Shown here: positions 5,581-5,837 of the stretch, one piece after another
How the letters are laid out: every line of letters starts with the position of its first letter
Position numbering within the stretch: the stretch's first letter is position 1
Origin: Alphaproteobacteria bacterium
Lineage (GTDB): Bacteria; Pseudomonadota; Alphaproteobacteria; Rickettsiales; UBA8987
DNA length: 64,000 bases
Assembly: GCA_031426355.1 (NCBI GenBank)
Contig: JANPLD010000068.1
Span: forward strand, 71,477-135,476
Direction of reading: 5' to 3'
The notes under the pieces: generated by a model
Seen by the model: the letters and a program-made list of their open reading frames with translations, nothing else
The model's database searches: none
Told to the model about the DNA's origin: nothing
Program-made: the position numbers and the translations under genes

Positions 5581-5684
5581 TCTATATCATATATAGCTTT
5601 GAAACTTCATTTTCTAACCAAAAGAAACTATACTGCAACTAAAATCATTATTTAGATAGAACAGTAGGTTATAATAAGTTTAGT

Positions 5685-5699
5685 TGATAATTATTATCA
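5685..5699. promoter_or_regulatory. Candidate Fur box (perfect 7-1-7 inverted repeat TGATAAT-T-ATTATCA)
   Basis: TTGATAATTATTATCAA at 5684..5700 is a perfect 8-1-8 palindrome. Its inner 15 nt equal the TGATAATnATTATCA Fur consensus. It lies in the divergent intergenic region between nuoG (ATG 5580) and the 5838 orphan gene. Confidence 0.45.
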
Positions 5700-5837
5700 A
5701 AACCAAATAGTGTGAAATTTATTATGATTTATCAACTTATGGTGGTTAAAATTTAAGTAAATAACGAATGGTAATTAATCATTTCTTAATACATACAGTG
5801 TATGATAATGAATCAACTTAATAGGATCAATTGATTT

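Follow-up and report, generated by a model that had tools for sequence, protein, structure and literature searches.

A palindrome conserved upstream of a separate nuoG operon is probably a Fur operator in an uncultured alphaproteobacterial lineage

The stretch of 64,000 nucleotides analysed here (contig JANPLD010000068.1, assembly GCA_031426355.1; called the window below) contains genes for respiratory complex I preceded by a palindrome which, as argued in this text, is probably an operator of the organism's own Fur protein. The gene next to it, nuoG (3496..5580, minus strand), codes for a protein of 694 residues with 2Fe-2S and 4Fe-4S domains recognised by Pfam and with an N-terminus MPK that is common to 13 homologues. 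It is followed by a tightly packed set on the same strand (830..3488), consisting of nuoH (2463-3488), nuoI (1982-2461), nuoJ (1147-1962) and nuoK (830-1150), all identified by Pfam and presumed to be co-transcribed targets along with nuoG; in relatives the operon extends to nuoN, as gene order at the loci L083 and L086 indicates. No nuoF stands before nuoG in the window or in any of eleven relatives, and nuoG thus heads an operon of its own. Between gyrB and nuoG there is also a divergent pair of orphan paralogs (5838..7499, plus strand; open reading frames 5838-6737 and 6750-7499), and the palindrome occupies positions 5684..5700, with no preferred strand, within the divergent spacer of 257 nt that separates nuoG from the 5838 frame.

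The palindrome, TTGATAATTATTATCAA, is a perfect 8-1-8 inverted repeat, to which the flanking pair g5683/a5701 adds no further pairing; in the orientation of nuoG it reads TTGATAATAATTATCAA. Its inner 15 nucleotides (5685-5699, TGATAATNATTATCA) agree with 0 mismatches with the 7-1-7 core TGATAAT-N-ATTATCA, a way of reading the Fur box that reportedly comes from Baichoo and Helmann in 2002 (TGATAATnATTATCA). The classical Fur box of E. coli is a 19-bp consensus, GATAATGATAATCATTATC, and by this measure the window matches 15 of 19 positions. Both the repeat and the identity of its core with the Fur consensus had been noticed earlier from the letters of the window alone (the sequence-only reading) and are borne out, as are the distances of 104 nt to the ATG of nuoG (5580, minus strand) and of 137 nt to the ATG at 5838 (plus strand); 104 is the difference of the coordinates, and 103 nt lie between.

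What is improbable at this place is the identity with the Fur consensus and not palindromy as such. Perfect palindromes with 8-nt arms occur 14 times in the window, including four of the 8-1-8 type, all of them intergenic and AT-rich. For the 15-mer core the window has one exact site and 25 sites with 3 mismatches but nothing with 1 or 2, which sets the exact match apart as an outlier and not as the upper end of a graded series. It had 0 occurrences in 100 dinucleotide-preserving shuffles of the window, and composition leads one to expect 0.002 copies per 64 kb at the base frequencies of the window or 0.009 at those of AT-rich intergenic DNA. The earlier statement that an exact match to the consensus is improbable by chance, made then without a calculation, agrees with these values. 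Whether the identity has a function is not decidable from a single window. The palindrome was not taken for a hairpin or terminator: a stem of A and U alone cannot close over a loop of 1 nt, and the scan called no terminator-like site.

The nuoG loci of eleven related genomes were fetched by a NuoG protein search and make up, together with the window, a clade set of 12 loci. The NuoG proteins of these relatives are 69–83% identical to that of the window (83, 76, 76 and about 70%), and the nearest ones that carry a source name belong to two relatives labelled in NCBI as metagenome-assembled genomes of a 'Rickettsiales bacterium'. Relatives of the window include the assemblies GCA_964445765.1, GCA_033762595.1, GCA_964564045.1, GCA_964424715.1 and GCA_035909535.1. 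At six of the 12 loci a box with 0 or 1 mismatch stands directly upstream of nuoG, and these loci represent four separate lineages from both subclades. Read in the orientation of nuoG, the box of the window is TGATAATAATTATCA (0 mismatches, 104 nt to the ATG of nuoG) and that of its closest relative L082 is TGATAATAACTATCA (1 mismatch, 109 nt). Exact cores were also found in L089/L090, within a 9-1-9 repeat AATGATAATTATTATCATT located 30 nt from the ATG, in L172 (TGATAATTATTATCA, 21 nt) and in L173 (TGATAATCATTATCA, 8 nt), a locus of 48% GC, while L091 has 1 mismatch (TAATAATAATTATCA, 17 nt). The best match in L083/L084 has 3 mismatches (TAATAATTATTTACA, 97 nt), and L085, L086/L087, L088 and L174, with 4 or more, have no box. 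Measured against the classical E. coli consensus, the relatives come closer than the window does: 18 of 19 positions agree in L173 (GTTAATGATAATCATTATC) and 17 of 19 in L089 and L172.

The six nuoG sites are the only matches with 0 or 1 mismatch in the 211,210 nt of clade DNA, where a single site with 2 mismatches was registered in a coding sequence of L174, and no site with 0 or 1 mismatch was found in 160 distant alphaproteobacterial nuo loci (1.38 Mb). This negative background, for which alone the loci were used, came from a search of metagenome contigs with the NuoG alignment, which gave among the matches listed only distant loci (≤62%); a NuoG search of genome contigs returned only relatives at ≤59% identity and none of the clade. 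When the loci are aligned on the box, conservation within ±30 nt is confined to the 15-mer. The NuoG tree places the window and L082 in one subclade and the other carriers (L089 with L172, L173, L091) in the second, so that the box is ancestral and was lost several times. Thus, by phylogenetic footprinting, the box is an evolutionarily conserved cis-element that belongs to nuoG. The suggestion of a Fur-type operator at Fe-S-rich complex I, put forward from the window only, is considerably strengthened by its recurrence before nuoG in four lineages and, at 0 or 1 mismatch, nowhere else in 211 kb.

A protein capable of recognising such a box was looked for as well, the sequence of the window's own genome that was examined amounting to 64 kb plus 2 kb. 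In tblastn, neither the window nor the clade loci obtained first gave a match to Fur of E. coli and B. subtilis or to Zur. In L174, one of the 70% relatives, a protein of 134 residues with the domain PF01475 is encoded 6 kb from nuoG. Among NCBIfam models it scores best with the Fur equivalogs (~100 bits, which is below their cut-offs) and lower with PerR (72), Irr (39, and 32 with another Irr model) and Zur (26). Taken as a query, it retrieved a series of homologues of 133–136 residues at about 75% identity. One of these, the Fur protein P0131, consists of 133 residues and is a full-length member of the FUR family (PF01475, E 8.5e-40); its gene is carried by the Logan contig L175 of run SRR20217183 and by a contig in NCBI with a length of 48,657 bp. 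The window proteins, which are singletons at 90% identity, show the same pattern of sources: one NCBI contig (176,893 bp) and Logan assemblies of run SRR20217183, from which the contig L001, 100% identical to window positions 1939-14965, was also obtained. The P0131 gene has a GC content of 38.8% (33.6% at third codon positions, GC3), which matches the housekeeping genes of the window, and its product is 95, 85 and 81% identical to Fur proteins of the clade, mirroring the NuoG identities of 83, 76 and 75%. From the common run, the composition and the congruent pattern of similarity we infer that P0131 and the window come from one genome. The sequence-only reading presupposed a Fur-family regulator in that genome, and P0131 takes this place as far as the common origin holds.

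The solved structure closest to P0131 is Fur of Magnetospirillum gryphiswaldense (4RAY, E 3.6e-53, 182.2 bits, ungapped over 130 residues), followed by Mur of Rhizobium leguminosarum (5FD5, 172.7 bits). In the ungapped alignment to 4RAY, P0131 keeps the DNA-reading residues Lys15, Tyr56 and Arg57 as well as the metal-site residues His33, Glu81, His87, His88, Asp89, His90, Glu108 and His125. We take the latter to form two metal sites, one made of His33, Glu81, His88 and His90 and the other of His87, Asp89, Glu108 and His125, the placement of residues beyond the mutated ones being our assumption. Both of these sites and the DNA-reading residues are identical in the Fur protein of M. gryphiswaldense MSR-1 (MgFur; PDB 4RAY, 4RB1-3; Deng et al. 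2015, PMC4506495), a work that documents Tyr56 as a contact residue along with mutations of Lys15, Arg57, His33, His90, Glu108 and His125; a CxxC zinc site is absent from both proteins. In the available text no nuo target of MgFur is described. Binding of P0131 to the nuoG box is put forward here as a prediction. In L175 (1-991) fur is located 10 nt behind a trpD-like gene and thus has neither its own promoter region nor an autoregulatory box. The fur gene of L174 (3305-4026) follows an open reading frame of 104 residues; a lone TGATAAT half-site was seen in the spacer upstream of this pair, and no autoregulatory box at ≤3 mismatches was found upstream of the fur unit.

The position of the box relative to possible promoters was then considered. 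In the relatives a promoter-like element, TTGCCA (or TTGCGA, TTGCAC, TTGATA)-N16/17-TATAAG, precedes nuoG irrespective of the presence of a box. In L089, L091, L172 and L173 the box starts 25–26 nt after TATAAG and ends 8–30 nt before the ATG of nuoG, which leaves hardly any space at these loci for a promoter between box and gene. In L173 the terminator of gyrB is followed by TTGCGA-N17-TATAAG and, 26 nt further on, by the box, 8 nt before the ATG; since the terminator stands just upstream of the element, the nuoG promoter must fall in that short stretch. Placement of the box downstream of the conserved promoter-like element favours a repressor operator over activation from upstream. For the window, a consensus scan gave a putative nuoG promoter at 5721..5749 (minus strand) with the -35 hexamer TTAACC (5749-5744), a 17-nt spacer and the -10 hexamer CATAAT (5726-5721). 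Its putative -35 falls within a block conserved in L082 (TTAACCACC), and with such a promoter the box would follow the -10 at a distance of ~21 nt, an arrangement like that of the relatives. With the box 104–109 nt from the ATG, the geometry of the window and L082 is compatible with a promoter on either side of the box.

Between the box and the ATG of nuoG, a block of ~50 nt (5599..5649, minus strand) is nearly identical in L082 (AATGATTTTAGTTGCAGTATAGTTTCTTTTGGTTAGAAAAT), whose NuoG is 83% identical, though the surrounding spacer diverged; it may be either a leader sequence or an alternative promoter region. As an RNA element the nuoG leader gave no Rfam match, and its folding (z = -1.0) was no better than that of shuffles. 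The promoter-like element of the relatives is itself palindromic (AAAATAATT-GCCA-AATTATTTT spanning the -35 and GCTTATAAGC the -10; positions 5125-5165 in L089, ~2395-2435 in L172, 9925-9960 in L086 and ~9925-9960 in L173), and it may represent a second regulatory site, instead of or besides a plain promoter. Another perfect palindrome, TTAACCA-N5/6-TGGTTAA, occupies the same place after the putative -10 in the box-less L086 (9950-9975) and L088 (~9955-9980). Its arms are also found in the window (5744-5750 and 5612-5618) and in L082, where they stand ~122 nt apart and flank the Fur box; this shift may have come about by turnover of the operator, or else by insertion or duplication within the leader.

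Taken together, these data make it probable that the palindrome is the operator of the organism's own Fur (P0131) and that it controls the nuoGHIJK(LMN) operon, most consistently by steric repression. Of complex I, the operon encodes the membrane arm as well as the subunits richest in Fe-S clusters, NuoG and NuoI, and in this clade the nuoG-N unit, split from nuoA-F, would have its own promoter. A Fur dimer is expected to sit on the two TGATAAT half-sites, the G being read by Arg57, the T's by Tyr56 and the narrow minor groove of the AT stretch by Lys15, and iron would presumably be the signal. As every lineage with the box has it ~21–26 nt behind the sole promoter-like element that is conserved and 8–109 nt from the ATG of nuoG, bound Fur would block promoter clearance or elongation rather than activate from a place upstream of the -35. 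The more specific proposal that Fur is a direct repressor of the nuoG-N half, acting from an operator just downstream of the promoter and thus opposite to the validated cases of activation, is made only tentatively.

Several observations weigh against this interpretation. Repression of complex I by iron-loaded Fur would oppose the usual logic of iron sparing and the activation described in Caulobacter and Neisseria. The conserved element ends in TATAAG, with G at the last -10 position; the consensus scanner demands T there and therefore does not call the element, and placement of the promoter consequently rests on conservation and on the gyrB terminator of L173. The box has decayed in L083 (3 mismatches), L085, L086/L087 and L088, and is thus dispensable in some lineages. 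The fur gene lies on a contig different from the window, in the same sequencing run, and the 64 kb of the window contain neither genes of iron uptake or iron storage nor a second strong box, so that no regulon can be demonstrated there. Finally, in pathogenic Rickettsiales no Fur-family regulator or regulon was found (PMC1698941), while the clade of the window, two relatives of which are labelled 'Rickettsiales bacterium', has both Fur and the box.

An opposite sign of regulation by the same protein has to be weighed next. In Caulobacter the Fur site at -87 of nuoA, upstream of the -35, binds Fur and is needed for about 2-fold activation; it was validated by electrophoretic mobility shift assay, site mutation and lacZ fusions, and the effect is direct, without a small RNA (da Silva Neto et al. 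2009, PMC2724300). The same work cites Neisseria nuoA as the first case of direct activation by Fur. By analogy, the promoter of the window would lie within the block 5599-5649, and iron-loaded Fur, bound ~55–90 nt upstream of it, would stimulate transcription at sufficient iron. The distance between box and ATG in the window and L082 is indeed akin to the Caulobacter positions -87 (nuoA) and -101 (sdhC), the near-invariant 50-nt block of these two loci contains TTGCAG-N16-TA(G/A)AAA, and activation agrees with iron-sparing logic. However, boxes only 30, 21, 8 and 17 nt from the ATG (L089, L172, L173 and L091, respectively) leave no room for a downstream promoter, all four of these loci have the conserved promoter-like element before the box, and the downstream block of the window is without a good -10. 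On this balance activation by Fur seems rather unlikely.

The sequence-only reading suggested that the operator would tie the orphan paralogs to iron status. The two frames, at 5838 and 6750, are paralogs with 25% identity (E 2e-13); they have no Pfam match, and no homologue was found by a word-indexed search. An exhaustive HMMER search registered 4 members of the family in 1.84 billion representative proteins. They reach a GC3 of 20%, well below the value of about 33% for housekeeping genes, and the AlphaFold model is unusable (predicted local distance difference test 48.8). L082 has a single homologue of 271 residues (917-1732), also on the opposite strand between gyrB and nuoG, while in the ~70% relatives recF, gyrB and nuoG lie on one strand with a short gyrB-nuoG spacer and no orphan genes. 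The family resembles lineage-specific genes that were acquired recently or evolve fast, and it may encode an effector, since a VirD4-like gene is located nearby. Since the box is present in relatives with collinear recF-gyrB-nuoG and without orphans, it predates their insertion and belongs to nuoG, and the orphans were probably not its original target. The proposed link between them and iron status is therefore not upheld.

Co-option of the box by both divergent units, with the orphans brought under Fur control at a later time, is improbable, although some features would fit it. The box is within the divergent spacer, 137 nt from the ATG of 5838; a weak plus-strand promoter match uses its left arm as the -35 (TTGATA-N16-AATAGT, 9 of 12 positions); the arrangement is kept in L082 with its single orphan homologue; and many validated Fur sites of Caulobacter are situated between divergent genes. 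Against this, the box was not acquired together with the orphans, and adjacency is all that joins them to iron: no Pfam domain, a family of 4 members and an unusable model offer no detectable connection. The weaker half-site TGATAATGAATCA at 5803..5815 (plus strand) near the 5838 start does have the position and sequence reported for it earlier, but it is no more than a half-site and is not conserved. It has 5 mismatches as a 15-mer, no match with ≤4 being found at its position, its TGATAAT half is replaced in the alignment with L082, the closest relative, and it is not counted as a part of the operator. Probably it is a -10-like hexamer of the orphan gene promoter.

Less probable still is control by a regulator that responds to something other than iron: the same protein of the Fur/Mur branch sensing manganese (Mur), another paralog of the Fur family (PerR, Irr, Zur) or an unrelated dimeric factor. 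In its favour one can mention that the score of P0131 with Mur (5FD5) nearly reaches that with Magnetospirillum Fur and that the NCBIfam Fur equivalogs were matched below their cut-offs. The box also formally fits the RirA pattern TGA-N9-TCA of the iron-responsive operator (IRO), with TGA-TAATTATTA-TCA present, a pattern that is low in information, and it can be written as 7-3-7 (TTGATAA-TTA-TTATCAA). The half-site is, however, exactly of the Fur type. It differs from the PerR-type half-site TTATAAT and from the Zur-type consensus, both known from the 7-1-7 work on B. subtilis. The box of FNR/FixK is TTGAT-N4-ATCAA; the same pentamers are present here, but they are spaced by 7 nt instead of 4, and this candidate was rejected.

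Irr deserves separate attention, as in Bradyrhizobiaceae it represses at low iron enzymes that use this metal, including nuo, through a 7-3-7 palindrome, the iron control element (ICE; PMC1698941). In that system, too, a regulator of the Fur superfamily is combined with a 17-bp AT-rich palindrome before nuo, and its logic would make a repressor site at nuoG sensible. Nevertheless, the half-site of the ICE box (TTTAGAA-N3-TTCTAAA, PMC1698941) differs from TTGATAA of the window at 2 of 7 positions in each half, and the clade regulator scores as Fur (~100 bits against 39 and 32 with the Irr models), the Irr and PerR models being far below. RirA is restricted to Rhizobiales, RirA together with the Mur box to Rhizobiales and Rhodobacterales, and other alphaproteobacteria use the Fur-alpha box (PMC1698941).

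Finally, a chance origin of the box from AT-rich sequence or from back-to-back promoter hexamers TTGATA / TATCAA, with no regulator involved, is very improbable and effectively refuted by the comparative data: the abundance of 8-nt-arm palindromes in the window, the AT-rich intergenic character of all four 8-1-8 repeats, the 5 of 6 positions that TTGATA shares with the -35 consensus in the best promoter-like match of the region (10 of 12) and the ~2-fold excess of the 8-mer TTGATAAT (17 against 7.7 expected) would agree with it, but the exact match was absent from all shuffles, the 15-mer is retained before nuoG where flanking intergenic DNA is no longer alignable, further sites with 0 or 1 mismatch are lacking in clade and distant DNA, and the -10 partner of the TTGATA hexamer is not kept in L082.

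Some other features were registered in the course of this analysis. The three other perfect palindromes of the 8-1-8 type or longer, likewise intergenic and made of A and T only, are found in the window at 10152-10168 (CTTTAATTTAATTAAAG), before an open reading frame of 152 residues between gyrB and recF, at 14543-14561 (AGTTAATAAATTATTAACT), between the VirD4-like gene and ppdK, and at 30020-30036 (ACTATAATAATTATAGT), between a DUF2336 gene and rpsF; the last one consists of two back-to-back TATAAT hexamers and resembles a PerR-type 7-1-7 core. Within the coding sequence of the second paralog, the 8-mers TTGATAAT / ATTATCAA form a cluster (7228-7260 and 7400-7407). The perfect everted 9-0-9 palindrome GATTATCAATTGATAATC at 7243-7260, part of this cluster, was rejected as a regulatory site: being located in the coding sequence and not palindromic in the L082 homologue, it is probably a by-product of codons for ..LSIDN... 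A CtrA-like TTAA-N7-TTAA at 5775-5789 is a chance occurrence, as the window contains 7 such sites with 6.6 expected.

The gene content of the window is alphaproteobacterial, with the split nuo operon, recF-gyrB, genes resembling those of gene transfer agents, the VirD4-like coupling protein and flagellar rod genes (36293-37090). The transfer agent-like head and tail genes (capsid, prohead protease, portal and tail proteins at 38440-46422 and 51056-52258) lie dispersed between housekeeping genes, recA and alaS among them, and the VirD4/TraG-type coupling protein (13166-14497), of 443 residues, looks truncated. Neither a tRNA nor an Rfam family was detected in the entire 64 kb. In the relative L085 (metagenome-assembled genome GCA_033762595.1) the nuoG-nuoH junction is broken by a DNA methyltransferase and a PD-(D/E)XK nuclease gene (11930-13329), and a nucleotidyltransferase toxin-antitoxin-like pair stands behind nuoH (14357-14895); it seems that mobile modules of defence or addiction entered the complex I operon there.

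Control of complex I by Fur is already known, and what is particular here is that nuoG stands at the head of a split operon, that the box is of the canonical AT-rich form and that its placement points to repression. The closest counterpart, nuoA-N of Caulobacter, likewise has a single alphaproteobacterial 19-bp palindrome about 90–100 nt before the first complex I gene, and the two boxes share the outer bases aTTGa.AA...TT.TCAAt. The Caulobacter site, GTTGCGAACGTTTCTCAAT, is nevertheless GC-richer and precedes nuoA of an undivided nuoA-N, whereas that of the window is the canonical TGATAAT-N-ATTATCA before nuoG of a split operon; besides, the relatives of the window have their boxes downstream of the promoter-like element, while the box of Caulobacter is upstream of the -35. 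Classical Fur boxes are usually found at genes of iron uptake, where they overlap the -35 and -10 hexamers. Here the target is an enzyme that consumes iron, and the box apparently lies just downstream of the promoter. Fur-alpha boxes were predicted before nuo and sdh in Oceanicaulis, Parvularcula and Magnetospirillum with the mode of action left open (Rodionov et al. 2006, PMC1698941), and as in the present case these Fur sites stand before genes of respiratory enzymes that use iron, the alphaproteobacteria concerned belonging to neither Rhizobiales nor Rhodobacterales. A box before nuoA-N was also predicted in Gluconacetobacter (PMC9368920).

Thus, the finding is solid, and a specialist will hardly be surprised by it. 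It adds an uncultured and probably host-associated lineage labelled Rickettsiales to the handful of alphaproteobacteria with documented or predicted direct control of complex I by Fur, and it documents long retention of a box before the split-off nuoG-N operon. It also corrects the notion of iron-regulated orphans, which were inserted beside a pre-existing operator. The combination of a clean single-site operator with the sequence of its cognate regulator makes the choice between activation and repression of respiration genes directly testable. If repression by Fur is real, complex I would be shut off at abundant iron, limiting oxidative damage; alternatively, metal-free Fur would repress it in starvation, which would provide a reduced genome with iron sparing that needs no small RNA. 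In either case nuo, by being split at nuoG, would have gained a module with the Fe-S-rich subunits under separate control by iron, and regulation of this kind would operate in a group whose classical members reportedly lack Fur.

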